64,000 bases of DNA from an uncultured Eubacteriales bacterium (lineage in GTDB: Bacteria; Bacillota; Clostridia; Oscillospirales; CAG-272): positions 3,240 to 67,239 of the forward strand of contig CAJKPX010000007.1 in assembly GCA_905201895.1 (NCBI GenBank), given 5' to 3'. The translations under genes were made by a program, and so were the position numbers. The notes under the pieces are model-generated. The model was not told where the DNA came from. It searched no databases and saw nothing but the letters and a program-made list of their open reading frames with translations. Below, piece by piece: positions 7,907 to 55,408 of this stretch; the first letter of the stretch is position 1, and each line of letters opens with the position of its first letter.

Positions 7907-8281
7907 TCCTTTCTTTCATCGTTTGACACGCAGGGGTTCCCCCACCCTGCGCGCCTTCCTGCTTATTATAACACAATATGCGCATATTGTCAATATCTTT
8001 TGTTAATTTTTTTATATTTTTATCATTGTTTATGTTAAAAATCCAACATTTTATGCGCATGTCTTGAGAGGACCAACAAAAATCCGCAAAAGACGGCAAA
8101 AGGCGAGAAAAAGAGACGGAAGAACACACGCCCCGACATCGGAATATCCTATTAGCAGCACTTCTGTTTCGGAAGAAAATTCCTCAACCAAAGTTTGGAG
8201 AACGTGTTTAGAGCGCACGTTCAGAAGGAAAGAATAGAAGCAGAGATCAAAAGCTCTATGCCAAAAGAAAGGAAAAGCGAT

Positions 8282-8956
8282 ATGAGCGTCAGACGAGGAG
8301 ATATTTATTATGCGGATCTGAGTCCTGTGGTGGGCTCGGAGCAGGGCGGACTCCGCCCCGTTCTGATTATTCAGAACGACATCGGAAACAAATACAGCCC
8401 CACCGTGATCGCGGCAGCAATTACCTCACGCATGAGCAAGACCCGACTCCCCACCCACATCGACATCTATGCCGAGGAGGTGGGACTCGCCAAGGATTCG
8501 GTGATCCTGCTCGAGCAGATCCGCACGCTGGATAAGCGGAGGCTCAAGGAGAAGATGGGACACCTGGACGAGCGCAAAATGGACTACGTGAATACCGCGA
8601 TCGCCATCAGCTTTGGGCTGGGCGACCCCGGGCAGGATGCCGCCATGCGCGCCATGATGCAGCGAAGCCATACCGCAGGCGGCACGCATGCCCCGAGCGC
8701 ACGCCCTGCTGCGGCGGTAGCATCCACCGCGACGGGCACCGCGGTCGGCACCGCAGACCTCCCCACGAGCCCCCCAACGGGCACCCACACGAACACACCC
8801 GCAACCATTTCAACCGCACCCCGTTTCCATACTACCTCAACCGCCTCGGGAGCAGGCGCATCAAACGCAGCGCAGGGGGCGTCGACAATTGCAGGGGGAA
8901 CAGCCCAAGAGCAAACGCAGGCGACCGATCACACACGCACCATCCCCGAGTCATAA
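8282..8956 (+). CDS. mazF: MazF/EndoA-family mRNA interferase with a ~110-aa low-complexity C-terminal extension
   Basis: Residues after MSV ([46 protein letters not shown]...[16 protein letters not shown]) align along the whole length with Bacillus EndoA. The frame then continues through a T/A/G/P-rich tail. The open frame begins at 8195; ATG 8282 is chosen by homology. Confidence 0.8.
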
Positions 8957-9144: not shown

Positions 9145-9236
9145 GGAGAAGTACTCAAGAGGCCGAAGAGGCGCCCCTGCTAAGGGTGTAGGCCGGGTTT
9201 ACCGGCGCGAGAGTTCAAATCTCTCCTTCTCCGCCA
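9145..9236 (+). tRNA. tRNA-Ser (anticodon GCT), class II with long variable arm, CCA encoded
   Basis: Manual fold: acceptor GGAGAAG/CTTCTCC, D arm CTC..GAG, anticodon stem CGCCC/GGGTG with loop CTGCTAA, long variable arm, T arm GAGAG-TTCAAAT-CTCTC, 3' GCCA. Confidence 0.9.
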
Positions 9237-9240
9237 AAAA
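9214..9240 (+). repeat. attL core (27-bp direct repeat shared with 54132-54158)
   Basis: TTCAAATCTCTCCTTCTCCGCCAAAAA occurs identically at 54132-54158. It covers the T-loop to the 3' end of the tRNA. Confidence 0.85.
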
Positions 9241-21227: not shown

Positions 21228-24200
21228 TTATGCCGTTTTCGCATGAAAGGTGTTCAAAATCGCCCCATTTTTGGTCTCAAAACCGCAAATCGATGCAATT
21301 TCTGCTCTTTCTTCCTTCGAAGCACCCTTGAGAGTAAGGATGTATCGAAGCAGGGACTTCTTTGCGCTTTCCGCATCCATCCCGACCACATCCCCATCGG
21401 CTGGAGAATAGCCCATAGAGGCGATGAGAAGGAGCTTTTGGTTTCTGCTCAAGCCAAGCTTGTTGATGTACGATACAACCTTCTTGCGCTTGCTTCCGGC
21501 AATGGTGTTGCCCTTCCGATCCTTATCGCTTGTAATTCCCCTCGTTCCGAAATAGAACGAATAGAGTGAATCGTAGTCAACGCCGCCCTTGTTCAGATAT
21601 TGCATCTTCTCATAGACGTCCTTGTTGTACTGCTCAAGCGATGCTTGCGCTCCGTATACGAGTCTGTATGCTTCGGCAAATCGGATATCCTCCTCCTCGA
21701 TAGATGAGGTTGCCTCGATTGCTTTTGTCATGAGCTCATAATCGTCGATCGCGGTTTCGTATGCTTTGTTGATCAACACTTGAATCACGCGAGTCTGCTC
21801 AAGCTTTTCTGCCCTCGACAGTTCGGAGTTGTTTTGAGTCTTGCTCTTCTCCTTGTACATATTGCTGATAGCCTTTTTCACACGGTTGAGGTATCGCACT
21901 TGGTACTTGGCGGTATCATCGCCAGCCGTATCCGCATACTGTGCCTCATCGTAAATGTCATAGAAGCGCGTTGAGAGCTTGTTCGACATAACGGGATCAA
22001 GTGTGAAGTTGCCGGTGAAGAAATCCTTCTCCTCCTTCGGCGTGGTAGCAGGGAGAATGAAATCTCCGATGACACCCGAATACTGATCGAGAAGATAGTG
22101 AATCTTCTTGGGAGATGCTTCAAGACCTACAAAATCATGTGCCTTTGCAATCGCAATGGCAATCACACTCGTGTTCTCATCAAAGCGATCCTTCGGAGCT
22201 ACGTTCTCAAACTGCCGCCCCTCGATTGCAGTGCCGTACCACGTGGTGTTGGTTGCAACGTCGAAAAACGGAGAGAGTATGGTGCGAGTCATACTGTCAA
22301 CGGGGGATACCTGCTGAAGCACGTTGTCGGCGTAATCCTTCCAATCAACCACCTCACCCTGCGCCGCTTCAACACTTCTGTTTACCAAGCCGCCAAGTGC
22401 GCTTGCAACGCGACCTCTCGGAATCTTGATAAAGGTGTCTCCCGCTTTGATGAGGAAGTTGTTTTCCTTGTCACTGTCTCGGAGCTTCTTATAGTCCTCG
22501 TCATCCCCGTTCATGATCATGTTAAGCACCATAGGAGCGATTCCAACGATAGTAGCCTTGAGCGCAAGGATCGCCGCCTCCTTCACAGTTCTGACCGCCG
22601 TCACGTTTCTCACCATCTTGCTAAATCCCTGAATGGAAGGATTGAGGAACGGCATCACGGTGCGGTTGAGCGCCTTTGCAAGCTTTCCTCCTCTTGCAAA
22701 GTTTGTGGTAACGTCAGCGGAGTCAAGGATTGCTTGCTCCACACTGTTGCCAGCCTCGATAGAGGAGATGAATTCTGCAAGTCGCGGCAATTGTTCAACG
22801 AAGGAGTTCGCGTTTTCAATCGTGGTCATGGTCTTCTTGACGATGTTGCCCTCTGCCTTTGTCAGACCCCAGCTATTCTGCGACCCATCCGTGCCCTTTT
22901 CAAAGTCGAACACAGTGCTCGCAAAGCCTCCGTAGGCTCTGTAGAGCTGCCAATACTTTCCGTTGGTGGCGATCTCCTTCTGCGCAATTGCATAATTCTT
23001 CAAGAAGGTCTTTCCGAATCTTGTATTGATTCCGGCATCTTGGATATCTCTGATCGTGTTTCTCAACAAGAATGCAGGGTTCAAGGATGTTACACCGCGC
23101 TTAAACAATTTGTTGCTTGCGCTTACCAAATCTATCAGAGGATTACCGATATCGGTCTTCGGAGAGAATGCATCAAAGCCCGCAAAGATCTCCTTGCTGA
23201 CTCTGATCGTTATGCGCTCTCCGTCCTTGAAGAAAGTGATCTCGTTGTCCTTCGGTCTGTGCTCGGTCGGATCATATGCCGCCGCTTCTTCGGGTGTCAT
23301 CTTCTTGCGGGATACCACCTCAATGTGGGTAGTGTCTCCCTTTTCAACCGATGCATCGTAGAGCGCGTTGGCAAGCTGGTTGACTCGTCCTGCAACAATT
23401 GTCTCCATCACCTGCCGAGCAATGATCTTGTCGGGGTTCTGAAGCCTCTTTGTGCTTCCTTTTGCAGTTTTGACCGTTGTCTTGACCGCCATGTTGTACT
23501 TGCCCTCGGTCGCTCCGATGCCCTTCTTGGTGTCTACGCGGTAGGTCGGTACATAATGCGGATAGAGCTCTGCAAGATAATCAAAGTTATCTTTCGAGAG
23601 AAGCCCCGTGTCAACGCGATACTGATTGAGATTCTTGAGGAATCCCCAAAGCTTCTCCGCTTGCTCTGCGAATTCGGGGTGATCCTTCTCATACCGAGCA
23701 ACGAGCTCCTCGCTTTCCTCTGCCGTAACGGGCGTTGCATCCTCTCCGGGCGTGGTGGGGATAATGTGTCCGTCCTCATCTTTTGTCCAACCAATCACGG
23801 GCTTGTCCTCAAGCGGCATAAATTCCTTGATCTTCTTGTCCAATTCCTTTGCGCGCTTGTTGACCTCTTTCGCTTCCGCCTTCAGCTTCTTGACTCGCTC
23901 ACGAAGACCTTTTTTGATCTCCATATCGTGTCTCGTTCTGCCGAGCGCGGCAATCTGCTTCTCAAGCGCATCAATCTCCTTCTTGAGAGCATTGATCTTG
24001 GCAACGTCCTTCTTGAGATTATCAATGTCCGCTTGATGCCACTCCATCGACCGCTTCTTGAGAGTCATGCGGCTGAGATTGTGCTTGTGGAAGAGATATC
24101 CGAAGAAGTCTGCGGTAACCTTCTCTCCCTGCTTGGTGATGGGATTCATAATCGGAATCAAGCCCTCTCCCTGCACGAGCGTATCCATATTGTCCTTGTC

Positions 24201-27200
24201 TGCGCTGACACCGATGCGCATCTGCTGACCGCCGATCATCTCGTTTGCCTCGGTTCTCGCGGCTCTCACGGCTTGCACCTTCGACTCGATATCCTTGATG
24301 CCGAGTTGCTTGCCAATCACCTCAATGCCAGCCTGCTCGTTGGTGACGGCAATTTGGAATTGAGTCCACAGAGAGAACGCCTTGTCGCGCTTGCTCGGCT
24401 TGTAGCTCTCCTCCTCCATCGAGATCGAGGCGCGAGTTGCTTCGATCGCTTCGTCGATGTCGATGGCGTAGCGGATGTCTCCGGAAAGTGTGCCTTTGGT
24501 GCGCTCTACGCCGAGTTTTTTTGCCACATCCTCAGAAAATACCTCGTTAGAAAGCGGAATACTCTTGACATATTCGAGAAAATCTGCTATACTAACTATA
24601 GGAGACTCTGAGGAGATGAGAGAGCTTTGCTCTGTAACAGCCGTGCCGCCAAGAGCGGATGTAGGAGTCTCTGTTTTTTTGCCCTTAACCGCACTAAGCT
24701 GGTACACATCAATTTCTGTTACATTGTTTTCGAGCTTGGAGACGACGGAGCGAACCACATAAAGGTTCTCGCTGTCGCGGCAAGCTCCGAGAAGCACATA
24801 GGACATTTCTGCCTTCCGTGTTGCGCTACCGTTAAGCTCGTTCACAGCGACGCTGTTTTTCAGCACATCGCCAATTTTCATAACCGCAAAAGCTGTCTCT
24901 TGGCTTCTTGCGATGCCGTGTGTCATACCATTTTTGCTCAATAAGACATCCAGACCGATATCATCGACGCGCACATAGGTGCTTGTCTCGGTGTTATTCG
25001 GGTTTTTTTGTTTTCTGGCGTTGAGCCTGCCGCGAGCTACGACGGCGTTTGTGTCGACCTTGCCATTTTCCGTCATGGGAAGCTCTGTAGGGAAGGTTAC
25101 CACCGACAAATCTCTCTTTTTGGTCAGAGACTCATAGGAATAAGCGTCTGCACTCGGAGCGTAACCGGTATTATGGGACACCGGCTCAAAGTCAATAGCT
25201 TTCCGCACAGATTTGCTATTTCCTTGATCGAGGATCTCGGAAACCACCTCTTGCCGCTTCTGTCGGATTACCTTCTCAAGCTCGGCGTTGCTCATTCCCT
25301 CTGCGGCAAGCTTGGCATATTTCTGCCGCTCGCCATCGTTGGCAAACTGCTGGAGGAGCTCGGTTCTGCGGAGCTTCTCGGAATCCTTGAAGAATTCCAC
25401 CGCCTCGTCGAATTTGTAATTCTTGAGTGAGAGCCGCTCGGCAGGGGATGCCTTGCCGTCTGGGGTGAAGAGATTGTAGTCTACAAGACACTTGTAGTAG
25501 CCGTAGGGGATGCGGTAGCCGCCATGCTCAAACGAGATGTCATCGATCGTTGCATCCTCTGTGAGATATCCAAGCTCCTTGCCGTATCTCAAGATGTTCT
25601 TGAGCACAGAGGCGTTGTTCTCCACATACTCTCGGAATTTCGGCTTGTACCCAGCCTTCTTGCACTCGTCGATGTATGCCGTGAGGTTCTTCTTGATGAG
25701 ATCCTTTTGAGAGAGGTTTTCGGTGTTCTCAAAATCCCAGAAGGAGTAGATGTCAATCGGCTTCTTCACCTTCGTGTTTGCCTTGTGTCCGTCTGCGGTA
25801 TCCGCGTACACCTCGCTCTGCTGGCGCGTATGATCCTTGATGTCGGCATAGCCGAGGATCTCTCGACCACCCTCGCGCACGATCGTCTCGCGCACGGTGC
25901 CCATCTTCACGCCGCTCTTGTGGAATGGAATGAAGTATGCAACGTCATCGTTTGCCATGACCCACGCCGCCATCTTCTCGTTCTGCGACACGGCGATGAT
26001 ACCGGTGTTGCCGCTCTTGTCGGAGTCTACCACCTTGTAGATCTCCTCAAGGCTCATCGGGAAGGAATCGTTTCTGTCGATCTTCCACACTCCCTCATCG
26101 TTGTACATGAAGATGGAGATATTGCGCTTGAGGTTGGTATTCTTGGTTGCCTCAAGGAATGCCGGCACCTTTGTGTAGGCGTGACCGGTGAGACCAAGTG
26201 TGCCCGCCTCAAAAAGCACCTGAAGAACGTCGACGAAGTTTTGAATCTGAAAATCCGAATAGGATTGCAGACGGAAGCCTCCCGTGGATGCAATCTTCTT
26301 CACGAGGCTTTTGTTGATGGTTCCGTCATCCTTCGTGAGCAATGCGGTGAGCTCTCCAAATCGGAACGGAGTCGCTCCTCTCGGCATCTTCGGCTTGCTC
26401 TGCCCATAGAATGAGTTGAAAGCCTCATATACCAACGGCATCTGAATCTTGAGCGTTGCAAGACCATCCTCCGTTGAGAGCATATCGATCGTGATGCTTT
26501 CGGGAGACACCTCATACTCCGCAAGGGCATCTCGCACGAATTTGCGAGTCTCGGAGTTATTGGATTTCAGTTGCCCCTTCTTTTTGCCGCTCTGCTCATA
26601 AAGTTGAGGATTGCTTGTGTTGCTTTCGTTCGACTCCGTAATGAGTGTTCGGAACGCCTCTGCCATCGGTGCGAGATTCTTTCGCATCGACTCCACGTAG
26701 CATTCGCGGCAGGGCTGTGTCAAGCCCTTGTCGGCAAGCACCTTGTGGATGTAGAAGTAGTTATCCACGTTCTTGAAGAATCGCTTGCTTTCGGGGACAC
26801 CTCTGCGCTCCTCTTCACGAACGATATCATCATAGATTTCGGCAAAGTTTTTGCGCTTGTCGCATATGGTGGAAATATCGCTTGATGTGAAATAATCCGA
26901 GTTGGGCTCAAGGGAAGAGAACAAAGCGCGCTTTTTGCTATCCTTGCGCACCTCTCCGTTCTCGCGCCATGTAGGATCATCAATGATATCGTATCCCGCT
27001 TCCTTCATTGCAACGGCAACGTCAACAATGCCCTGAATGGAGTCCTCGATCTCTTTGCGAGCATCCTGCTCGTTGAAATCGGGAATGCTCTGTCGCATAT
27101 TATCCAAGCACTCTTGAACATAGTTGCGGTAGCCCTCGGTCTCGCGGTAGTCAATGCTCTTGAATTCCTCGACCGAAATCTCCTCCGCGCCCTTTCCCTC

Positions 27201-29879
27201 TTTGGTGACGTAGTTATCACCGAGGAATGTACGCGAGATCGACGAGAAGGATTTTCTTGTGTTGTCCTTTTCCTCCTCTTCCTCTCCCGTCACAGTGGGC
27301 TTGGGCATCGATTTCTTAATCCGAGTCAGACCGCCCTCCTCCGATGCATTTGCCTGCGCATTGCGCTCTGCAAAGGAGTCGAACATCTTCTTATAGGTGC
27401 GGTAGAATTTCTTCGCGTAGCCGGAAAGCCGCTCATTCGGATCATTCGATGCATTCTTGAAGAAATTGAGAATCTTATCCTTGAGGGTAGGCTCCACCTC
27501 AAGAAGCTTTTCAAGCACGTTTTTGTTGCCGAGGATGTCCTCTGCATGATATGCGCTGATCTCGTCAAGATAGAGCTCTGTGCGGCTCACGTCGGTATCC
27601 TGATCGGCATACGCCGCAATGATCTTCTCTTGAATCTCGGGCGATACGCGCTTGAGCGCCTCCTTGTATGGGATAACGGCATGAACCTTGCCATCCTTTC
27701 CGAGATACTGTCGGATCGCATGGTCAAGCTCGTGGATCAGAATGCGCTCCGCGCCTCTCTTGGAGTTGGGATTTACCACAAAGCGATTCTTCTCCCCGTC
27801 ATAGAGTGCGCTCTCTCCCTCCTTGAGCGAGGAATCGAACACAACGTCAACGCCCGACCGAGCGGATACTCTCGCGTACAGAAGCGCATCGGCATCGCTG
27901 ATGCCTTTTGCCTTTGCATCGCGGATCACCTTGCGGATCATTCCCTTGTTCGGCTCGTTGAGCTCGGAATAGCCGTCCACGTTCTCTCTCGCATAGGTGT
28001 CTGCCTCTGCCGCTTCTCGTTGGAGTCGAGCGGCTTCATCGACCTGCTTCTGCACGTCTTCCATGATTGCAGTTTTTTCGGTGTTGTAGGATGCGAGGCG
28101 TTTGTTCACGTCGGATGCAGTAAGGCTCTTGGTGGTGTATCCGCTCTTGTAATCGTGGATCAGATACGAATCGCCATCTTTGGAAACGCCAATGTCGAGG
28201 CTTCCGTCGGTGTATCGGGCAGATTGACCGTTCTTGAGGTTGATCCGCTTGGGAATCGATCTCGCAGACTCCGCAGGGATTGCTTGGAGCATCTTGGTGC
28301 GCTCTCTTGTGCTGACGTTCTGCTGAACGCCACCGTTCTCAATGAATTGCTCAATCTTTTTGGCAAAGGAATCCGAATCGAGGCTTGCCCAGCTATCAAT
28401 GCCAAGAGCCTGCGACACCGCATTGATCTCCTGCGAGGTTGCCGTCTCCAAAAATCTGTTGAAATCCACCTGCGAGGCAAGCTTTCTTCCTGCGAGCGTT
28501 GCATGGGTGAATTGCGCAGAATCAAGAAGCAGCTTACCCGTTGCATCCGACACCGCAAGGCTACGAAGCGTTTCGTTCTCGCGCAGTGCCTTGTAGATGG
28601 AGGACGGATTGCTTGGATCATATCCCTTCGTAATCTCTTCTGCGGTGACAGAGTATGTCTGTCCCGTTGTCTTGTGCTTGTATCCGTATTCCGAGAGTCT
28701 CTGTGCCACCTGCGGCGCGTTGCTAACAATGTTCAAGGCTCTCTGTGCCACAAACATATTTGCAGACGTTGCCACATTCTGCCGATAGAGGTCACCGAGA
28801 AGCTTCTTCTGTGTCACGGTGACCACCTGACCGCCCGTCTGCTGCAGGCTCTGCGAGAGCTTGTTTCGCGTATCCTCAATGGTCTTGAACACCTCGTCAT
28901 CCACGTTGTTTTCGGTTGCCCAAGAAGAAAGATCGTTTGCAGTGTTGAGCACCTCGGTAGCACCGCCTCTGTTGGCGATATTCGTGCCCTTTGCAAAGCT
29001 TGTGCCGGAATCAAACACAACGCCGGTGCCGCCCATGACCACGCCGCTCAAGCCGCCTACAAAGCCCGAATAGAGCACCTCTTGAGGCGTTGCAAATGCC
29101 GCGCTTGGGTCATAGGTCATGCGCTTCCATACGGGATCAAGGATCTCGGAGGTTGCTTCCTCAAAGAATTCTCCTGCGAAGCTCGATGCGAGCGTTTTCA
29201 AAGCGCCCTGCTTTGCCACCGTCTTTGCGGTCTCCTTTCCGAGAGCCTTTGCAAAGCTCTTTACAACCGCACCGCCTCCGAGCGACAATGCCGTTGTTAC
29301 GCCCTCCAGAGAGCCCTCTGTAAAGCCCGACAAAGCACCGTATCCGTAGGTCTTTGCATCGAGGTTGCCCGTTTCCTTGTAGGCACTCTTAACGGCGTTA
29401 CCTGCCGCGCCAAGACCCGAAGTGACCGCCGCGCCAAGAGGTGCAAGAGCCGCCGCAAAGCTTCCTGCTCCCGCTCCGCCCGTGGCAACAGTGATTGCGG
29501 TAGCGGCGATAAGACCGGGCAAGCTCGTTCCAATGCCGCCTGCAACATCTCCCGCCGTCTTCATGAATCCGCTCGGATTGTACCATTCTTCGGGATGGCT
29601 ATACCAATCGCCAAACCAATCGTTTGCGATGATATCCTCCGCCCACTCATCGTTCCCAAAAAGCTTTGCCAAGCCGGAGGTGACGTAGTCGACACCGCCC
29701 TCAATGCTAGACACAAATCCTACGGCGAGCTTTTCGGCAAGGAAACCGAGACCGCCAAGCAGACCACCGTTGTTGGTGGTCGCTTGTGTGTTTGCGGTCT
29801 GGCTTGAGGCATTCCAATTCGTGTATAAAGTTTTTTGCTTCTCCACCTTTGGCGAAGAAGAAAAGGAATAGATTGCCAT
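21228..29879 (-). CDS. Giant (2883 aa) virion-associated multidomain 'polyvalent'-type protein with HExxH zincin motif
   Basis: Single uninterrupted ORF between the portal-proximal gene and the scaffold. Gly/Ala-rich hydrophobic N-terminus, an ILIHELDHAIRQY (HExxH) segment, a Cys-containing globular middle (QPCRECYVESMRKN), a coiled-coil (KKLKAEAKEVNKRAKELDKKIKEF) and a large C-terminal region. Confidence 0.6.
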   Translation of the reverse strand: MAIYSFSSSPKVEKQKTLYTNWNASSQTANTQATTNNGGLLGGLGFLAEKLAVGFVSSIEGGVDYVTSGLAKLFGNDEWAEDIIANDWFGDWYSHPEEWYNPSGFMKTAGDVAGGIGTSLPGLIAATAITVATGGAGAGSFAAALAPLGAAVTSGLGAAGNAVKSAYKETGNLDAKTYGYGALSGFTEGSLEGVTTALSLGGGAVVKSFAKALGKETAKTVAKQGALKTLASSFAGEFFEEATSEILDPVWKRMTYDPSAAFATPQEVLYSGFVGGLSGVVMGGTGVVFDSGTSFAKGTNIANRGGATEVLNTANDLSSWATENNVDDEVFKTIEDTRNKLSQSLQQTGGQVVTVTQKKLLGDLYRQNVATSANMFVAQRALNIVSNAPQVAQRLSEYGYKHKTTGQTYSVTAEEITKGYDPSNPSSIYKALRENETLRSLAVSDATGKLLLDSAQFTHATLAGRKLASQVDFNRFLETATSQEINAVSQALGIDSWASLDSDSFAKKIEQFIENGGVQQNVSTRERTKMLQAIPAESARSIPKRINLKNGQSARYTDGSLDIGVSKDGDSYLIHDYKSGYTTKSLTASDVNKRLASYNTEKTAIMEDVQKQVDEAARLQREAAEADTYARENVDGYSELNEPNKGMIRKVIRDAKAKGISDADALLYARVSARSGVDVVFDSSLKEGESALYDGEKNRFVVNPNSKRGAERILIHELDHAIRQYLGKDGKVHAVIPYKEALKRVSPEIQEKIIAAYADQDTDVSRTELYLDEISAYHAEDILGNKNVLEKLLEVEPTLKDKILNFFKNASNDPNERLSGYAKKFYRTYKKMFDSFAERNAQANASEEGGLTRIKKSMPKPTVTGEEEEEKDNTRKSFSSISRTFLGDNYVTKEGKGAEEISVEEFKSIDYRETEGYRNYVQECLDNMRQSIPDFNEQDARKEIEDSIQGIVDVAVAMKEAGYDIIDDPTWRENGEVRKDSKKRALFSSLEPNSDYFTSSDISTICDKRKNFAEIYDDIVREEERRGVPESKRFFKNVDNYFYIHKVLADKGLTQPCRECYVESMRKNLAPMAEAFRTLITESNESNTSNPQLYEQSGKKKGQLKSNNSETRKFVRDALAEYEVSPESITIDMLSTEDGLATLKIQMPLVYEAFNSFYGQSKPKMPRGATPFRFGELTALLTKDDGTINKSLVKKIASTGGFRLQSYSDFQIQNFVDVLQVLFEAGTLGLTGHAYTKVPAFLEATKNTNLKRNISIFMYNDEGVWKIDRNDSFPMSLEEIYKVVDSDKSGNTGIIAVSQNEKMAAWVMANDDVAYFIPFHKSGVKMGTVRETIVREGGREILGYADIKDHTRQQSEVYADTADGHKANTKVKKPIDIYSFWDFENTENLSQKDLIKKNLTAYIDECKKAGYKPKFREYVENNASVLKNILRYGKELGYLTEDATIDDISFEHGGYRIPYGYYKCLVDYNLFTPDGKASPAERLSLKNYKFDEAVEFFKDSEKLRRTELLQQFANDGERQKYAKLAAEGMSNAELEKVIRQKRQEVVSEILDQGNSKSVRKAIDFEPVSHNTGYAPSADAYSYESLTKKRDLSVVTFPTELPMTENGKVDTNAVVARGRLNARKQKNPNNTETSTYVRVDDIGLDVLLSKNGMTHGIARSQETAFAVMKIGDVLKNSVAVNELNGSATRKAEMSYVLLGACRDSENLYVVRSVVSKLENNVTEIDVYQLSAVKGKKTETPTSALGGTAVTEQSSLISSESPIVSIADFLEYVKSIPLSNEVFSEDVAKKLGVERTKGTLSGDIRYAIDIDEAIEATRASISMEEESYKPSKRDKAFSLWTQFQIAVTNEQAGIEVIGKQLGIKDIESKVQAVRAARTEANEMIGGQQMRIGVSADKDNMDTLVQGEGLIPIMNPITKQGEKVTADFFGYLFHKHNLSRMTLKKRSMEWHQADIDNLKKDVAKINALKKEIDALEKQIAALGRTRHDMEIKKGLRERVKKLKAEAKEVNKRAKELDKKIKEFMPLEDKPVIGWTKDEDGHIIPTTPGEDATPVTAEESEELVARYEKDHPEFAEQAEKLWGFLKNLNQYRVDTGLLSKDNFDYLAELYPHYVPTYRVDTKKGIGATEGKYNMAVKTTVKTAKGSTKRLQNPDKIIARQVMETIVAGRVNQLANALYDASVEKGDTTHIEVVSRKKMTPEEAAAYDPTEHRPKDNEITFFKDGERITIRVSKEIFAGFDAFSPKTDIGNPLIDLVSASNKLFKRGVTSLNPAFLLRNTIRDIQDAGINTRFGKTFLKNYAIAQKEIATNGKYWQLYRAYGGFASTVFDFEKGTDGSQNSWGLTKAEGNIVKKTMTTIENANSFVEQLPRLAEFISSIEAGNSVEQAILDSADVTTNFARGGKLAKALNRTVMPFLNPSIQGFSKMVRNVTAVRTVKEAAILALKATIVGIAPMVLNMIMNGDDEDYKKLRDSDKENNFLIKAGDTFIKIPRGRVASALGGLVNRSVEAAQGEVVDWKDYADNVLQQVSPVDSMTRTILSPFFDVATNTTWYGTAIEGRQFENVAPKDRFDENTSVIAIAIAKAHDFVGLEASPKKIHYLLDQYSGVIGDFILPATTPKEEKDFFTGNFTLDPVMSNKLSTRFYDIYDEAQYADTAGDDTAKYQVRYLNRVKKAISNMYKEKSKTQNNSELSRAEKLEQTRVIQVLINKAYETAIDDYELMTKAIEATSSIEEEDIRFAEAYRLVYGAQASLEQYNKDVYEKMQYLNKGGVDYDSLYSFYFGTRGITSDKDRKGNTIAGSKRKKVVSYINKLGLSRNQKLLLIASMGYSPADGDVVGMDAESAKKSLLRYILTLKGASKEERAEIASICGFETKNGAILNTFHAKTA

Positions 29880-29891
29880 AATGCCTCCTTG

Positions 29892-33631: not shown

Positions 33632-35578
33632 TTATTTACCTCCTGCGATATAGTTTGCGAGATATGCCTCATATCTCGATCGGTTGTCAACCTCCGCCTG
33701 GAGATCCTCAACCTGATTTTGCATCATCTGCATCTCTTGCTGACGAGCGATCTCCTCGCGGAGTCGCTCCACGTTATCATGGGCAAACGGATAGTGTGCG
33801 CTCTCCATATTAAGCCAGAAGATCAGCAGTGCGCGAGGGTCTTGAGGATTGCCATAAGCGCCTTGCTGGAAGTTCAAGCGGTTCTCCTGCCAAAGCATAT
33901 CCCTCTGCCGCTCAACGTCAACGCTTGCATCCGCAGAGAAGAGATACTCGTTGTTGTAGTAGTATACTCCAGCCTCGTCGCGCTCGACGAAATCGTAGCG
34001 GTTGAACGTACTGTTTTGAAGCTTGCCCATCGCATCGCGGTAAACGGAGGGTCTCGGCTCGTCCGCATATGCAAGGTAGTATTGGAAGATGATCTTATCA
34101 ATATCCGCATACGCCGCATTTTTCATTTGCCGCTTGGAGTCGAGCCGTCCAGCCGCCTGCTGAATCTGCAATTGCTTTGCCTTGCCGCTCTGCGCACTGC
34201 TATCCCTCTGCCCTTGATAGGAGTCGGTGATACCGAGTATGCGCTTTGCTTGATCGTAGATGCGGTCAGATGCCGCCTGATCGCGCGAAATATCGACGGA
34301 TAGGTCTACCCTGCCAAACAAAGAGAAATTGCTCTGATTTGCCCTGAACGCCTTTTTGAAAATGCTATTGTCAAGTTCGATGTCGACGTCATCGGGGACG
34401 ATGGGATATACTCCGCTCGAAATGATCTTCTCCATGATGCGAGACTCAATCTTGTTGATCGCCTGCTGCTGCGGACGGATAAATTCACAGTCAGACTGTC
34501 CAAACAAGGACTCCTCCTGCGACGTATTTTTGCGGATGACGATCGGGAGGAGAGTCGGTCGGTAGAACGGTATCTTTGTAGCCTCCATCTTGGGGACTTG
34601 TACCTCGATCATGCCCGGCACAAGCACTCCGTTGACAAGGTCCATCGCCACGTTGCCGCTCGGATCGATCGCCTGCCTCTGCTCGGTTGTCATAACGATC
34701 TGTCCGTCCTTGATCACCTCGCTTGCCGCGGGGATGTAGCCTCCATCCGAGAGAGGGATGTCTCGATCAAGCTCCTCATACTCGTCGCTCTGCAACTCAT
34801 AGTCGGACTCCTTGTTGCCCTCACAGGTGCAGATTTCCTTTCGTTTGCCGCACTTCTTGCAGACGTACTTCTTGCGGGCGTAGTAATCCTCAATGTCAAC
34901 AATCTCGGTATCCGCGCTCCAGATGTACTGACACACCTTGTCATCGTCATCTTTGTAGTAGCAGACATACAGTGTCGCAGTCTTGTCATCGGCATTGTCC
35001 TCCGACTCTGCCTCCTCTGCCACATCAACGGATACTCCGTATTTGCGCATGATCTCCTCTTTTGTGGTCTCAAACTCGACAAAGCAATACTCCATCTCGT
35101 TTATGTCAAAGATGTGCGGCTGACCCGTAAATTTCTTGGGGCTCAAGCAAGAGACCTTGACATCTCCCACAGTGTTATGTGTCACAACAGACTCGTCCCA
35201 CTCTACAAGCCACACAGAGCCTCCGTAGATCGGGTTGTATCGCTCGTCAATATCGTTCATGACCTCAAAAGGTAGGTCATCTCGCTTGTTGCGGAGCATT
35301 GTCTCAATCCGCTTGGCATTGCGCTCGTTACGCTCGCTCCACATCTTTGGCTTGACGGATGGGTTGGGGATGTAGCTCGTCACCTGCGACTCGACAAGCT
35401 CGTAGGTGATATTACGGATTTGTGTAGCCTCAACATCCGACCCGTCGATCGCGCGGTCTCCCTTGTATTGCCGCAGATGCTGGTCGAGCTTGCCGTATAG
35501 CTCCTCCATCTCACCCCGCGCGTCTTGGTATAAATCCTGAAAAAATCTGAGCTTTGACTCGCTCTTATCGATCATCAT
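33632..35578 (-). CDS. Portal protein
   Basis: 648-aa ORF overlapping the terL stop (ATGA-type coupling). Size and position are canonical. Contains a CxxC-x6-CxC insertion (aa 240-252). Confidence 0.7.
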   Translation of the reverse strand: MMIDKSESKLRFFQDLYQDARGEMEELYGKLDQHLRQYKGDRAIDGSDVEATQIRNITYELVESQVTSYIPNPSVKPKMWSERNERNAKRIETMLRNKRDDLPFEVMNDIDERYNPIYGGSVWLVEWDESVVTHNTVGDVKVSCLSPKKFTGQPHIFDINEMEYCFVEFETTKEEIMRKYGVSVDVAEEAESEDNADDKTATLYVCYYKDDDDKVCQYIWSADTEIVDIEDYYARKKYVCKKCGKRKEICTCEGNKESDYELQSDEYEELDRDIPLSDGGYIPAASEVIKDGQIVMTTEQRQAIDPSGNVAMDLVNGVLVPGMIEVQVPKMEATKIPFYRPTLLPIVIRKNTSQEESLFGQSDCEFIRPQQQAINKIESRIMEKIISSGVYPIVPDDVDIELDNSIFKKAFRANQSNFSLFGRVDLSVDISRDQAASDRIYDQAKRILGITDSYQGQRDSSAQSGKAKQLQIQQAAGRLDSKRQMKNAAYADIDKIIFQYYLAYADEPRPSVYRDAMGKLQNSTFNRYDFVERDEAGVYYYNNEYLFSADASVDVERQRDMLWQENRLNFQQGAYGNPQDPRALLIFWLNMESAHYPFAHDNVERLREEIARQQEMQMMQNQVEDLQAEVDNRSRYEAYLANYIAGGK

Positions 35579-36948
35579 AGTATTGGTAAACCTCCATATC
35601 GTTTGATTAGCAGTCTTCTCTCTGCCTCTGTGCCGTGGATATAATCCTGCTTGTGATCTGCTCTATAGAGCACTCTGCGCGTCTCGTCGACCTTGTTGGG
35701 CGATGTCCAATAGATCGCAAAGTAGCGGAGCGCATCGGGACTGTGGGTGATCTCGTGCGGCTCGTTGCATACGTCGGTAGGTCGGTTGGGGTCGCGTTGC
35801 AGGAGCGGCAGGTGCTTGATAAGTGTAGTGCAGGTATTGAATATGTGCAGCCTCGGCTCTCCGTCTGCATTCTTGAGCAGTAGCTCCTTGATCGCCAACC
35901 ATCCCGACTCGCGATCGTTGTTAGACTTGGTAAGGGTGAGACCGTTCTCGTGGAAGATAAGAGCCTTGCTCTTACCGGTCTCTTGAGTGCGGTTCCAAAG
36001 GTCAGGCGGTGCAAGCGTTGCATAGATGTCCTCGTCGCTCGGCGTTAGCTCTTGGATCGTGCTTGCCGCAACGCTGATAGGCAGATCGGGTGAGCAATAC
36101 TCCCGATAGACGTATGCATTATGGTTGTTATCAACGGCGATCCAATATGCCGCAAGCATATCGAGACCATAGTCGATAGCGATGTATCTACGCCATTCGG
36201 GGGGAATCTCAAACGGCGTACATACGTGATCCTCGCGCCTAAACTCCGTAAAATACTGCCCCTCAAAGATGTCCCAATCGCCGTTGAGAAGGGCTCTGCG
36301 CTCGTTCTCTGGGAGTGCCATGAGTCTCTTTTTGTAATTGGGGTCGCTCTCCATCAAAAATAGGTTGTCATCAACGAGTGACGGGATAAATATACGCCGC
36401 ATCCCATCGACCCCCTCAAAGGAGGTGTTAGGCGGTGCGGGGTCGACAAATCTCTCCTTGACCCATGAGTGACCGACTCCACCTGGGTTTGTGGATGACT
36501 TGATCTGTTTAGGGAAGCTATTCGCGCCTCTCACACGAGATATCAGGTAGATATACTGATCGTAGGTAAAGTGTGTAAGCTCGTCAAATCGCACCACATC
36601 GTACTCGGCAGATTGGTATTGGTAGACATCCTTTTCCGTCCCGCAATAGCCAAAATCAATGCAGGAACCGTTTGCCCATTTCCCCACGTGCAGAGATGAG
36701 TTAAACGTGAATATATCCCTTGGGTATAGAGCAAGAGCAGTGCGGATCAGGGACTTGTCGAGCTCCGCAAAGGATCGTCTCAATATTAACTGCTTTGATC
36801 CCGCATAACGGAGCGCAAAGAGCATCGCATCTACGATCTGACCATAAGATTTGCCGCCTCCAGCCGCGCCGCCGAAGAGCACCTCATCCTCTGTCGCACC
36901 GATAAATGCGCGTTGCTTTGTTGTGATGTCAATGCTTATCGATGACAT
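35575..36948 (-). CDS. terL: Terminase large subunit
   Basis: Walker A (FGGAAGGGKSYG) near the N-terminus and a nuclease-like C-terminal half. Start at MSSISID; the open frame extends to 36990. Confidence 0.85.
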   Translation of the reverse strand: MSSISIDITTKQRAFIGATEDEVLFGGAAGGGKSYGQIVDAMLFALRYAGSKQLILRRSFAELDKSLIRTALALYPRDIFTFNSSLHVGKWANGSCIDFGYCGTEKDVYQYQSAEYDVVRFDELTHFTYDQYIYLISRVRGANSFPKQIKSSTNPGGVGHSWVKERFVDPAPPNTSFEGVDGMRRIFIPSLVDDNLFLMESDPNYKKRLMALPENERRALLNGDWDIFEGQYFTEFRREDHVCTPFEIPPEWRRYIAIDYGLDMLAAYWIAVDNNHNAYVYREYCSPDLPISVAASTIQELTPSDEDIYATLAPPDLWNRTQETGKSKALIFHENGLTLTKSNNDRESGWLAIKELLLKNADGEPRLHIFNTCTTLIKHLPLLQRDPNRPTDVCNEPHEITHSPDALRYFAIYWTSPNKVDETRRVLYRADHKQDYIHGTEAERRLLIKRYGGLPIL

Positions 36949-37423
36949 TGATCTTGACCTCAAACGGAGCGGTACCGTCCTTGCCGGCAATCTCGTGCTC
37001 GGACTTGTCGCTCATGCCGTGATCGTTGGTGGCGACAAACTTGGCAAAATTGGCGTTGTAATATCCGCAGACGGCGTTAGAGATGAGCTTTGACTTCTGA
37101 TATTCTTTCGCACGCGCGTATGCGTGCCTAAAACGAGCACTCTGCTTGCACCAATTTAGCAAGGTGTCTCTCACCACACCAATCTTTGCCGCAAAGCCCT
37201 CGAAGGTGGGATACTCGTTACCGATGATCATGATCGGCTTTCCGTCTGTCCCTCCTATCTCCCTTGTGTTCGGGGTGGAAAAATACTCGATAAGCATATC
37301 GGCGTACTCCTCCTTATATTTAGAGGCGGCAGCATTTTCAAGTTTAAACTTGTGATCCTCTGCCTCTCTGCGCTCTTTAGTGTAAGATCCGCGCTCTGGA
37401 TTGCGTTCTTTTTTTGTTGCCAT
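36929..37423 (-). CDS. terS: Terminase small subunit
   Basis: 164 aa from MATKKERN, preceded by AAAGGAGGTAT. The FEGFAAKIGVVRDTLLNWCKQSARFRHAYARAKEYQ pattern is typical of HTH-type small terminases. Overlaps terL. Confidence 0.7.
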   Translation of the reverse strand: MATKKERNPERGSYTKERREAEDHKFKLENAAASKYKEEYADMLIEYFSTPNTREIGGTDGKPIMIIGNEYPTFEGFAAKIGVVRDTLLNWCKQSARFRHAYARAKEYQKSKLISNAVCGYYNANFAKFVATNDHGMSDKSEHEIAGKDGTAPFEVKINVIDKH

Positions 37424-52974: not shown

Positions 52975-52990
52975 TTGATTGGTGGATGAA

Positions 52991-54034
52991 ATGGCACAGA
53001 GATCAACAAAGCGCAACGATGGACGGCTTGTCCGTGCCATCACAGACCCTCGCACAGGTAAGCGCAAATATTTCTACGGCGCGACCGAGAGAGAAATAAA
53101 CAAAAAAATAATGGAGTACACCGCCAAGATCGAGAGCGGCAGACCCTTCAGAGAGGTCGCAGAGGAGTGGTGGGAGGCTTCAAAGGATGGCTTGGCATAC
53201 CAAACCATAAAGGTGTATAAGCCTGCCCTGGAGAGAGCCGTGGAGGCTCTCGGTGATATGTCCATCCGTGACATCAAGCCGAGGGATATAAGCGCACTTC
53301 TCCAACGGATGGCAAAGGCGGATTATGCCCTCAAGACCGTTGCCAATCAACGGACCGTTATCAATCAGGTGTTCCGCCATGCTATCCTTGAGTGTGACAT
53401 CGAGGTTAATCCATGCGCATCCGTCCCCACGCCAAAGAACCTAAAAAAGGTGCGAAGGGATGCCGCCACCACAACGGACGAGGATATCGTGCGAGAGCAT
53501 CGTGACCTTTGGGCTTTTCCTTACATCGCTCTGATGACCGGAATGCGCAAGGGAGAGATCCTTGCGCTCCAATGGAAAGACATTGACTTTGATGAGGATG
53601 TCATCCACGTCACCAAATCGGTGGGACATCAAGGTGACAGACCATTCATCAAAGAGCCAAAGACAGAGGCAGGGACTCGCATAGTCCCACTCTTGGCGGA
53701 TCTAAAAGAATTCCTTCTCACATTCAAAAAGAGAAGGGCAGAGCACTACATCATATCAGATGACGGAAAGACTCCTCTAACCAACAGAAGATATCTCACC
53801 TTGTCAAAGCATTTTAAGGAGCAGACGGGCGTGGAATGCACGGCGCATCAATTGCGCCACTCGTTTGCCACGATAGCCTTTGAGAACGATGTTGATGCCA
53901 AATCGATACAAGAAATCATCGGTCACAAGCAGCTATCAACCACCATGGATATCTATGCGGATTTCCGCGAACAATCCGTAAAAAAGGCGGCGGAAAAGCT
54001 CAACAAATCCTCGTTGTCAACGCCAAAAAAATAG
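52991..54034 (+). CDS. int: Tyrosine recombinase / phage integrase
   Basis: N-terminal SAM-like core-binding region. Catalytic-domain motifs LMTGMRKGEILALQWKDID, AHQLRHSFAT and GHKQLSTTMDIYAD (R..HxxR..Y). Adjacent to attR. Confidence 0.9.
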   Translation: MAQRSTKRNDGRLVRAITDPRTGKRKYFYGATEREINKKIMEYTAKIESGRPFREVAEEWWEASKDGLAYQTIKVYKPALERAVEALGDMSIRDIKPRDISALLQRMAKADYALKTVANQRTVINQVFRHAILECDIEVNPCASVPTPKNLKKVRRDAATTTDEDIVREHRDLWAFPYIALMTGMRKGEILALQWKDIDFDEDVIHVTKSVGHQGDRPFIKEPKTEAGTRIVPLLADLKEFLLTFKKRRAEHYIISDDGKTPLTNRRYLTLSKHFKEQTGVECTAHQLRHSFATIAFENDVDAKSIQEIIGHKQLSTTMDIYADFREQSVKKAAEKLNKSSLSTPKK

Positions 54035-54131: not shown

Positions 54132-54158
54132 TTCAAATCTCTCCTTCTCCGCCAAAAA
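54132..54158 (+). repeat. attR core (27-bp copy of the tRNA-Ser 3' end)
   Basis: Identical to 9214-9240. The match extends leftward with one mismatch. Confidence 0.85.
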
Positions 54159-54307: not shown

Positions 54308-54337
54308 GAGTTCGTAAATCTCTCCTTCTCCGCCAAA
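54308..54337 (+). repeat. Third, imperfect copy of the tRNA-Ser 3' end (older att scar)
   Basis: GAGTTCGTAAATCTCTCCTTCTCCGCCAAA compared with tRNA GAGTTCAAATCTCTCCTTCTCCGCCAAA: a 2-nt insertion, and 22 nt identical (54316-54337). Confidence 0.75.
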
Positions 54338-54938: not shown

Positions 54939-55408
54939 TTTTGTATCAAAATTACAGTCATTAGCCAAGGAATGAAGGTGTTACCGCTAGGTGACACCTT
55001 CATTTTTTCGTGGTAAAAGTGCATGATGCAGAGCTCCGCAAAAGCCGCTAAAGGCGGCGTTGCCAGAGCGTGCTCAGAAATTGAGTAAAGGGCTACAACA
55101 GCATAACAGCGCACGCCGAAGTCCATAAACTCTTCTTGGTTTATCCCCTTTTCGCCATACTCTGCCACCGTCAAGCCACTTTTCCTCCCCTTTGTACCAC
55201 ACTCCGCCACCGTCAATCACTCTCTGCCGCCGTCGGTCACTTTTTTGACATCTTGCACCACTTTTTTCCACCCCTCACCCCTTTTTCACCCCTCTTTTTT
55301 GAAATTTCACCCCTACGGGGTGGAGCAAAAATCGGGACGGTTATGATAAAATGATATCAGCAAAGAAGTTTGCCCAGATTCATTCTTGATTTGAAAGGAG
55401 CTTGTAAG

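Follow-up and report, generated by a model that had tools for sequence, protein, structure and literature searches.

The window analysed here, a stretch of 64,000 nucleotides (nt) from an uncultured Eubacteriales bacterium (assembly GCA_905201895.1, contig CAJKPX010000007.1), contains a prophage in which a single gene encodes a protein of 2883 amino acids (aa), referred to in the following as the giant. Judged from its sequence, the giant is likely to be a polyvalent protein that is packaged into the virion of a temperate, probably short-tailed phage and injected into a Clostridia (Oscillospiraceae-like) host. About 550 aa in its middle form a module that is probably catalytic and that appears undescribed when compared with Pfam, PHROG, NCBIfam and the Protein Data Bank (PDB), a statement that does not extend to those LPD domains of the 2017 paper on polyvalent proteins that are outside Pfam (e.g., LPD19 and LPD21). 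The giant is a known kind of protein bearing an undescribed, probably catalytic, domain. New here are the domain map, a carrier module at the C-terminus that includes a conserved transmembrane helix, the extent and conservation of the family to which the core of the middle module belongs, the tight linkage of this core to a zincin-like domain, a solo homologue of the core and the exchange of a cassette between two almost identical proteins.

The giant is a real single protein, and its gene is preceded by a strong ribosome-binding site (Table 1). As an earlier note on this DNA had described, the open reading frame (ORF) is uninterrupted over 2883 codons, which the ORF listing and the translation bear out, and with 19% of the approximately 44.9 kb of prophage it occupies about the fifth that had been estimated. 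It is not an artefact of fused genes, because a near-identical protein, further long carriers of the same middle module and giant single ORFs in viral contigs exist. The near-identical protein (P0015, 2842 aa), which stems from an independent assembly, is collinear with 97.1% identity over aa 1–1581 and 96.3% over aa 1803–2883. Moreover, the central module occurs in 131 further proteins of 1800 aa or more, and it was found at 72 loci in IMG/VR within single ORFs of 1395–6886 aa (median 3344).

The assignment to the phage-type polyvalent proteins starts from LPD38 (PF18857), which is the only significant Pfam match of the giant and belongs to the domains confined to phage-type polyvalent proteins (PMC5512222), so that the giant carries a signature domain of the class (Iyer et al., 2017). 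The architecture is shuffled: at least seven separable modules are distributed differently among 158 relatives, which have only the middle module in common while the other parts are swapped. Between giants on different IMG/VR contigs the middle module is 50–61% identical over the shared stretch, and the remainder is replaced. When 14 carriers were scanned over their whole length with Pfam, ART-PolyVal (4), LPD38 (2), PBECR3 (2), LPD3 (2), PBECR5 and MuF_C were found; by its sequence contexts, the middle module is a regular component of polyvalent proteins. The gene is located among the head genes of a phage of the terminase-portal type, inside a prophage bounded by attachment (att) sites. Homologues are known from virions: for JC1 gp69, the homologue of Bcep22 gp75, 51 unique peptides were identified by mass spectrometry of virions purified on caesium chloride (PMC9144972), and phi24B gp47 (2811 aa; LPD5, LPD1, LPD38 and MuF-C) is abundant in virions, is unseen in the cryo-electron microscopy map and was proposed to be an ejection protein (bioRxiv 10.64898/2026.04.10.717836). 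A polyvalent protein of 2198 aa from phage PTXU04 was needed for infection in a CRISPRi-ART screen (PMC11879866). The polyvalent-protein reading of the earlier note is strengthened by the LPD38 match, by the domains of the relatives, by a conserved zincin-like domain and by these virion homologues.

The middle region, which had been singled out as the likeliest place for new biochemistry, proved to be a large, strongly conserved and enzyme-like family without a match in any library searched. The motifs pointed out there, QPCRECYVESMRKN (with C1057 and C1060), GHAYTKVPAFLEA and FIPFHKSG, are all present in the translation and are invariant motifs of this large family. The module comprises a core and a C-terminal extension, the latter being detected in 77 of 158 carriers by single-sequence search, and a helical lead-in domain usually precedes the core (Table 1). 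In the core, 60 positions are at least 90% conserved across 142 sequences, among them three invariant cysteines; a fourth, C1406, lies in the extension. The invariant motifs of the core are C1006, C1057-x2-C1060, GGxRxQSxSDF, AYTKVPxF, KxNxS, IPFHxS and DxTxxQxE. Over the 142 segments the following residues are invariant or nearly so: N993, Y996, D1001, S1003, T1004, C1006, K1008 and R1009; C1057 and C1060, followed by Y, V, E, S and R1066; G1159, P1163 and K1164; G1200, G1201, R1203, Q1205, S1206, S1208, D1209, F1210, D1217 and Q1220; A1234–P1239 (AYTKVP), F1241, T1248, K1251, N1253 and S1255; N1291 and V1297; I1317, P1318, F1319, H1320 and S1322; and D1349, T1351, Q1354 and E1356.

When 1.84 billion cluster representatives (clusters at 50% identity) were searched exhaustively with HMMER, 2176 proteins passed E ≤ 1e-3 and 1176 of them also E ≤ 1e-30; the best 150 matches are nearly all 2000–4700 aa long. 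Word-index searches returned a handful of short fragments, e.g., from an Oscillospiraceae metagenome-assembled genome, and upon cluster look-up every member came from metagenome assemblies. No covering family was found for the module in the scans of the giant against Pfam, PHROG and NCBIfam, and for 25 members Pfam gave none even at E ≤ 10, apart from GP88, which was matched weakly in one of the 25 (E = 0.026) and weakly in BFVD and is too weak to use. Neither the whole giant nor the core profile has a match among PDB sequences. The core is likewise absent from 72,556 plasmids and from 50,697 phage genomes, save for one weak match in Moorella phage MTATph1. One further protein touches the lead-in domain: in P0007 (412 aa, L001:7801-9039) the lead-in domain known from the giant (aa 870–1038) is fused with a MuF_C/PBECR nuclease domain, and the P0007 gene lies beside a reverse transcriptase gene and a NERD/UvrD-like helicase gene, where a phage structural context is not obvious.

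The fold of the core was modelled with AlphaFold2 for aa 870–1570 (12 sequences; predicted local distance difference test score, pLDDT, 72.6) and for aa 960–1360 (25 sequences; pLDDT 80.3, predicted template modelling score 0.78). In both models a cysteine-bearing, helical N-terminal part is followed by five or six parallel strand-helix units, and the invariant polar residues are located in and just after the parallel strands, a placement that would be expected for the active site of a barrel-type enzyme. The top Foldseek matches of the better model in the PDB are all (beta/alpha)8 barrels (e.g., HisA, HisF and TrpC) with E-values of 0.016–0.1, none of them significant, with probabilities of up to 0.9 and a template modelling score of about 0.3 over approximately 150 columns. 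In BFVD one true homologue was detected, an uncharacterised protein of an uncultured phage (E = 2e-11), besides weak matches to PFL-activating enzyme and radical S-adenosylmethionine (SAM) proteins (E 0.06–0.25) and to glycerophosphodiester phosphodiesterases.

The match in the cultured Moorella phage is the most compact form of the core. MTATph1 CDS0078 (L009:6001-6696), annotated as a hypothetical protein, is a solo homologue of 231 aa that was found by tblastn with E = 3e-5 and matches the hidden Markov model of the family with E = 3e-19; its gene has an integrase gene and a DNA polymerase gene in the vicinity and does not stand among structural genes. Its sequence SLDLTTIC-PNLEQGNP-CPYC-YVQSARK contains a C-x8-C-x2-C pattern after the first predicted strand, GGLRLFSF follows 40 residues later, and AITK, VNVSV, FTFNH and an additional C-terminal CGATGTCKDCSLKC are present as well. 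In the giants the pattern reads C-x50-C-x2-C, with a helical insert of about 50 residues that parts the first cysteine from the CxxC. The cluster loop of radical SAM proteins reads CX3CX2C or a variant of it and comes after strand 1. The strand-5 motif of the core, G-x-I-x-V-(G/S)-x-x-(D/E), resembles the radical SAM motif GxIxGxxE, and the named sources of family members are Clostridia/Oscillospiraceae metagenome-assembled genomes and the Moorella phage only. Cysteine pattern, partial barrel, strand-5 motif and anaerobic sources bring to mind a radical SAM core whose cluster loop is enlarged. A tentative proposal, which we rate as rather improbable on the present sequences and models, is that aa ~985–1560 would represent a new family of iron-sulfur (Fe-S) enzymes, possibly divergent and radical-SAM-like with a split cluster loop, that is delivered by the virion and acts early. 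The radical SAM family PF04055 gave no match for 25 cores at E ≤ 10 or for the Moorella protein at E ≤ 1, and in hhalign comparisons with E. coli PflA, BioB, MoaA and NrdG the probability was at most 2.4% and no better than for HisA, HisF and other controls; the exception is an 18-column match at the cluster motif of NrdG (2.4%), and single-sequence templates are insensitive. The fourth invariant cysteine, C1406, would be equally compatible with a zinc site of the Cys4 type and with a conventional Fe-S site. If the proposal is true, phages of strict anaerobes would carry in their virions, as the payload of a giant ejection protein, a ready-made enzyme that at the onset of infection alters or destroys, for example, a nucleotide, a nucleic acid or a defence signal.

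Upstream of the core lies a putative metallopeptidase domain. The HExxH motif that had been reported near aa 720 occurs as a single copy at aa 716–720, within ILIHELDHAIRQY. A zincin-like domain of about 220 aa is present in 113 relatives and retains HExxH in 104 of them, and in an alignment of 91 domains the H, E and H of the motif and E773, 57 residues downstream, are 98–100% conserved; in sequence terms, HExxH with such a downstream glutamate is typical of gluzincins. When PDB sequences were searched with the profile, the matches stayed sub-threshold (E 0.01–0.3) and were mostly zincins, above all of M13, M9 and M3, aligned at the HExxH motif; among them are M13 peptidases (E 0.01–0.1), collagenase G, oligoendopeptidase F and IrrE. 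In relatives weak Pfam calls were obtained for DUF6782, a putative metallopeptidase, and eCIS_core. Of 131 carriers, 95 have the domain upstream of the core, at a median distance of 74 residues, and none has it downstream. For zincin-like domains of this kind, self-processing of the polyprotein has been proposed (PMC5512222).

The C-terminal region, estimated earlier at some 900 aa, is conserved over about 850 aa. Its aa 1908–2731 match phrog_14770 (PHROGs; E = 2e-36), and a tblastn search of the 50,697 phage genomes returned 188 records; in the records examined, the match is confined to aa ~1950–2715 at 22–26% identity. The matched proteins include giants annotated as "DarB-like" (Bcep22, BcepIL02 and Ralstonia podophages) and proteins of Vibrio phages, Bacillus phage Palmer and pelagiphage HTVC204P, and in every homologue examined the matching part lies at or close to the C-terminus (Table 1). 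In all 34 giant carriers, at most 280 aa follow the end of the module, and in 22 of them at most 2 residues. The gene order of HTVC204P is T7-like, and its gp40, flanked by an "internal virion protein" and the tail fibre, occupies the slot of T7 gp16. A hydrophobic helix is located at the same alignment column in seven of nine homologues that are only about 20% identical, and in the giant it directly precedes LPD38. Conservation, position and homologues in virions point to encapsidation and ejection as the probable role of this module.

The Gly/Ala-rich, hydrophobic N-terminus of the earlier note was confirmed, with moderately hydrophobic stretches at aa 38–56, 112–160 and 271–290. Homologous N-termini exist in 21 other giants and are N-terminal there in 17; against the phage genomes, the N-terminal 600 aa gave no tblastn match. 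Throughout the family, hydrophobic stretches concentrate towards both ends, within the initial 20% and the final 30% of the length. The strongly charged coiled coil that had been noticed was also recovered as a coiled-coil-like segment at about aa 1941–2030 with 35–39% K/R/E/D.

A segment between the middle module and this coiled-coil-like stretch is exchanged as a cassette. P0015 carries an unrelated segment at the place of aa 1582–1802, while the flanks are 96–97% identical between the two proteins. The cassette of the giant is found in just 4 of 158 relatives, each alternative recurs in few other giants, and neither alternative has a family match. This swap, which is directly observed, has the pattern expected for an exchangeable effector, in so far as sequence can tell.

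These features can be combined into a proposed mechanism. The C-terminal ~850 aa, i.e., the module at aa 2040–2715 with its transmembrane helix and LPD38 plus the tail module, would serve as a structural carrier that brings the protein into the capsid and that at infection would exit via the tail, insert into the membrane and form part of a DNA conduit. The hydrophobic Gly/Ala-rich N-terminus would be a second membrane-active end, and the soluble middle would be the cargo. After delivery the zincin-like HExxH...E peptidase may cut the polyprotein, as proposed for the polyvalent class. The ~550-aa module, with a helical, Cys-rich and putatively metal-binding subdomain placed on a partial beta/alpha barrel, may be an enzyme that depends on a metal or an Fe-S cofactor and that, soon after infection begins, acts on an anionic substrate, for instance a nucleotide, a nucleic acid or a wall polymer, and the exchangeable cassette of 221 aa could be a strain-specific effector.

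Several known systems resemble the giant in part. The virion RNA polymerase of coliphage N4 (3500 aa) consists of an N-terminal injection part, a central enzyme and a C-terminal encapsidation part, and the giant would share with it the tripartite logic of a very large virion-packaged protein, whereas no RNA polymerase family or motif was detected in it and its central domain appears beta/alpha-barrel-like rather than polymerase-like in fold. The N4 enzyme has been treated as a prototype of polyvalent proteins fused to zincin domains (PMC5512222). With phi24B gp47 and the phage-type polyvalents (PMC5512222) the giant has in common that a single huge polypeptide is encoded among virion genes with LPD38 near its C-terminus, and with the latter also a putative zincin-like peptidase, relatives with ART, PBECR and LPD3 domains and modular shuffling; it differs in having no Pfam polyvalent-protein domain besides LPD38, and phi24B lacks its dominant module of aa ~985–1560, for which no Pfam model exists. 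Bcep22 gp75 and JC1 gp69, which belong to the "DarB-like" giants of Lessievirus and Ralstonia podophages, are homologous over the C-terminal ~750 aa (23–24% identity, E about 1e-14; jackhmmer score 526), with the module C-terminal and the transmembrane helix at the same alignment column in both. In contrast to the giant, they have 4500–4600 aa with methyltransferase- or helicase-like N-terminal and central parts, their genes close the structural module, ahead of those for lysis, the phages infect Proteobacteria, and the Cys/beta-alpha core module is missing. To T7 gp14, gp15 and gp16 and P22 gp7, gp16 and gp20 the likeness is the proposed storage in the capsid, ejection before the DNA and membrane insertion, and to T7 gp16 also the position of the homologue HTVC204P gp40; the resemblance to the three T7 proteins is functional and positional only, as sequence homology is absent. 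SPP1 gp7 and Mu F share with the giant the gene position after the portal and before scaffold and capsid and the concept of a head-packaged effector, but the 1245-aa gene intervenes after the portal here, and in the relatives of the giant it does not adjoin the portal. A minor head protein of this MuF/SPP1 gp7 type was rejected as an identity for the giant, in which no Phage_Mu_F domain was found; position alone is analogous.

A number of results weigh against this picture. Packaging into virions is deduced from the homologues JC1 gp69 and phi24B gp47. For the C-terminal module, hhalign gave a probability of 0.2% with each of T7 gp14, gp15 and gp16, and its profile has no match among solved structures in the PDB; the term ejection protein therefore rests on position and analogy and is used here as a working analogy, not as a family assignment. 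Foldseek found nothing in the PDB at E ≤ 1e-3 for either core model, and it is from the conservation pattern alone that an enzyme is proposed, because no fold match is significant (best PDB E = 0.016). The Pfam scan of the giant returned no peptidase, the zincin assignment being drawn from motif conservation and sub-threshold PDB matches (best zincin E = 0.01). The phage morphology is deduced only from weak SU10 portal and adaptor matches and the absence of a tape-measure candidate. Finally, the gene position is not conserved in related IMG/VR phages, in which the giant follows a homologue of the 859-aa protein of the window and not the portal. Six loci (L015, L016, L019, L020, L038 and L045) have this homologue upstream of the module and in the same orientation, and in L003–L008 an ORF of 569–601 aa lies upstream of the giant; the position of the giant relative to head and tail genes is therefore not fixed. 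In the flanks of the 72 IMG/VR loci, most of which are filled by the giant itself, no homologue of the portal or capsid gene of the window was found, and TerL homologues occur in 3 loci and peptidoglycan (PG)-binding proteins in 17.

With these points in mind, the giant could be thought of as an essentially structural protein of the internal core or of ejection, with a middle module that is a scaffold, a channel-forming, portal-binding or DNA-binding element and no enzyme. For the middle module, indeed, neither a catalytic family nor a fold is matched, the ejection proteins known from short-tailed phages are described as large, poorly conserved and conformationally plastic (PMC8954989), and an essential structural role could equally make the middle module the best-conserved part among giants with swapped modules. 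Nevertheless, the conservation has the pattern of an active site, with invariant C, K, R, H, D, E, N, Q, S and T clustered within the parallel strands or directly behind them, the module is internal, soluble and free of hydrophobic segments, it co-occurs with known effector domains, and its 231-aa solo homologue in MTATph1 is encoded away from structural genes, beside integrase and DNA polymerase. We consider a purely structural protein unlikely.

The other explanations fare worse. Since the best-annotated tblastn matches are labelled "DarB-like antirestriction protein" or "N-6 adenine-specific DNA methylase", the names of the homologues could suggest an antirestriction protein of the DarB type with methyltransferase and helicase, as in phage P1. 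This is very improbable, as the similarity is limited to the C-terminal module (aa ~1950–2715) and does not include the methyltransferase/helicase part, and the giant has no methyltransferase or helicase domain in Pfam at E ≤ 1, neither an N6-adenine methyltransferase nor a DExH helicase. The earlier note had conceded that the protein might turn out to be simply a tape-measure protein, here of a long-tailed phage, for which the great length, the Gly/Ala-rich hydrophobic stretches, the coiled coil and the lack of another tape-measure candidate in the prophage would speak. That explanation is effectively refuted: no tape-measure family is matched in Pfam or PHROGs, the gene stands between the portal and the scaffold/capsid genes instead of behind tail-tube and chaperone genes, an adaptor-like gene directly followed by the 859-aa protein is a podophage-like layout, and the homologues of the C-terminal module are found in the podophages Bcep22, Palmer and HTVC204P. 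The fusion of several genes by an error of assembly or sequencing, also raised in the earlier note, has no point in its favour and next to no probability in view of the collinear P0015 from another assembly, the more than 130 public carriers of at least 1800 aa and the 72 IMG/VR loci with single giant ORFs. We thus retain the reading as a virion-packaged and injected polyvalent protein, in which the middle module is probably an enzyme.

Turning to the surroundings of the gene, a 27-bp direct repeat is found at 9214–9240, at the 3' end of a tRNA-Ser gene, and at 54132–54158, beside the integrase gene; it bounds the prophage and therefore gives its length of about 44.9 kb. On the minus strand, the order is TerL, portal, the 1245-aa protein, the giant, two small ORFs and the 293-aa scaffold-like protein, followed by a 132-aa cement-like protein, a Mu gpT-like capsid protein, an SU10-adaptor-like protein and the 859-aa protein. 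The placement of the giant between portal and scaffold, as given in the earlier note, holds for the order and fails for direct adjacency, the 1245-aa gene lying on the portal side and a 480-nt stretch with two ORFs on the scaffold side. In the 1245-aa neighbour, PG_binding_1 is the sole recognisable part, to which weak SleB and endolysin-type matches also map, and tblastn against the 50,697 phage genomes gave no match; it may represent a second, wall-binding virion or ejection protein. The 293-aa protein has no family match and is taken for a probable scaffold from its composition and position. No tape-measure candidate and no set of tail-tube and chaperone genes was seen in the prophage, which together with the weak SU10-type portal and adaptor matches suggests a short-tailed phage.

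Table 1. Features of the giant, its prophage and the phage proteins that share its C-terminal module. Positions are nucleotides of the window; for the four phage proteins they are residues.
Feature	Position	Strand	Remark
tRNA-Ser	9145-9236		prophage left end
Scaffold-like protein, 293 aa	19864..20745	-	acidic N-terminus and coiled coil
Basic ORF, 69 aa	20774-20983	-	in the 480-nt gap between giant and scaffold-like gene
Zinc-ribbon-like ORF, 54 aa	21007-21171	-	two CxxC pairs (CPNCGERL...CKRCGKF); in the 480-nt gap after the giant
Whole giant gene	21228..29879	-	ATG start, 2883 aa and stop, no internal stop
Extreme C-terminal tail module, aa 2670-2883	21231..21872	-	about 200 aa; ends many giants without the aa 2040-2715 module
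Conserved C-terminal module, aa 2040-2715	21735..23762	-	common to podophage giants and proteins in internal-virion position
LPD38 (PF18857), aa 2460-2615	22035..22502	-	E = 2.2e-29, 103 bits, cut-off 27
Predicted transmembrane helix, aa 2437-2455	22515..22571	-	Kyte-Doolittle 1.94; just before LPD38
Charged coiled-coil-like segment, aa 1941-2030	23790..24059	-	just weak matches of low-complexity/coiled-coil type
Variable cassette, aa 1582-1802 (221 aa)	24474..25136	-	unrelated segment of about 180 aa instead in P0015
Module C-terminal extension, aa 1361-1560	25200..25799	-	invariant W, C1406, PKF, GYxKxLxDF
Module core, aa 985-1360	25800..26927	-	helical Cys subdomain, then parallel beta/alpha units (predicted)
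Helical lead-in domain, aa 871-985	26925..27269	-	in 84/158 carriers; helical in the aa 870-1570 model
Zincin-like metallopeptidase domain, aa 640-860	27300..27962	-	HExxH at aa 716-720 (27720-27734), invariant E773
N-terminal Gly/Ala-rich region, aa 30-300	28980..29792	-	moderately hydrophobic; possible membrane-active role
Shine-Dalgarno AAGGAGG	29884..29890	-	7 nt before ATG; directly after TAA of the upstream gene
Upstream neighbour, 1245 aa	29892..33629	-	N-terminal PG_binding_1 (E = 3e-8); candidate wall-binding virion protein
Portal protein	33632..35578	-	phrog_156, E = 3e-30
TerL	35575-36990	-	first in head-gene order
Tyrosine integrase	52979-54034		prophage right end
Bcep22 gp75, matching part	aa 3701-4602 of 4602		C-terminal
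Palmer gp20, matching part	aa 930-1678 of 1678		C-terminal
Vibrio 1.232.O gp28, matching part	about aa 2612-3202 of 3292		C-terminal
HTVC204P gp40, matching part	aa 467-1251 of 1253		C-terminal

Some observations concern the borders of the prophage. The 27-bp repeats correspond to the att sites, and the tRNA is tRNA-Ser(GCT). A third copy of the repeat with 22 bp is located at 54316–54337, 184 bp further on, and may have been left behind by a previous integration. Immediately outside the att site on the left, an ORF of 253 aa with a PemK/MazF toxin domain (8195–8956, plus strand, E = 9e-36) exceeds the typical length of MazF. The right flank is richer in G and C and contains an ORF of 1623 aa (55430–60301, minus strand) without a Pfam match, which overlaps an ORF of 2757 aa with a TTG start (55370–63643, plus strand); presumably at least one of the pair is spurious.

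It was already known that giant polyvalent proteins can make up a fifth of some phage genomes, that they are found in virions and that most of their domains have so far no activity assigned. This locus pins down one such domain that is far commoner than the missing annotation implies, with at least 2176 clusters and dozens of viral contigs of about 40 kb. The middle module is strongly conserved amid shuffled surroundings, and its cysteine and beta/alpha-barrel signature points to a metal cofactor. It is also tractable, since its domain boundaries are clear and a cultured Moorella phage encodes a solo homologue of 231 aa. The conserved transmembrane helix adjoining LPD38 provides a first functional handle on a domain that was called of unknown function in 2017, and the exchange of a cassette in a 97%-identical backbone offers a natural experiment for strain-specific injected effectors or anti-defence functions in the phages of gut Clostridia.

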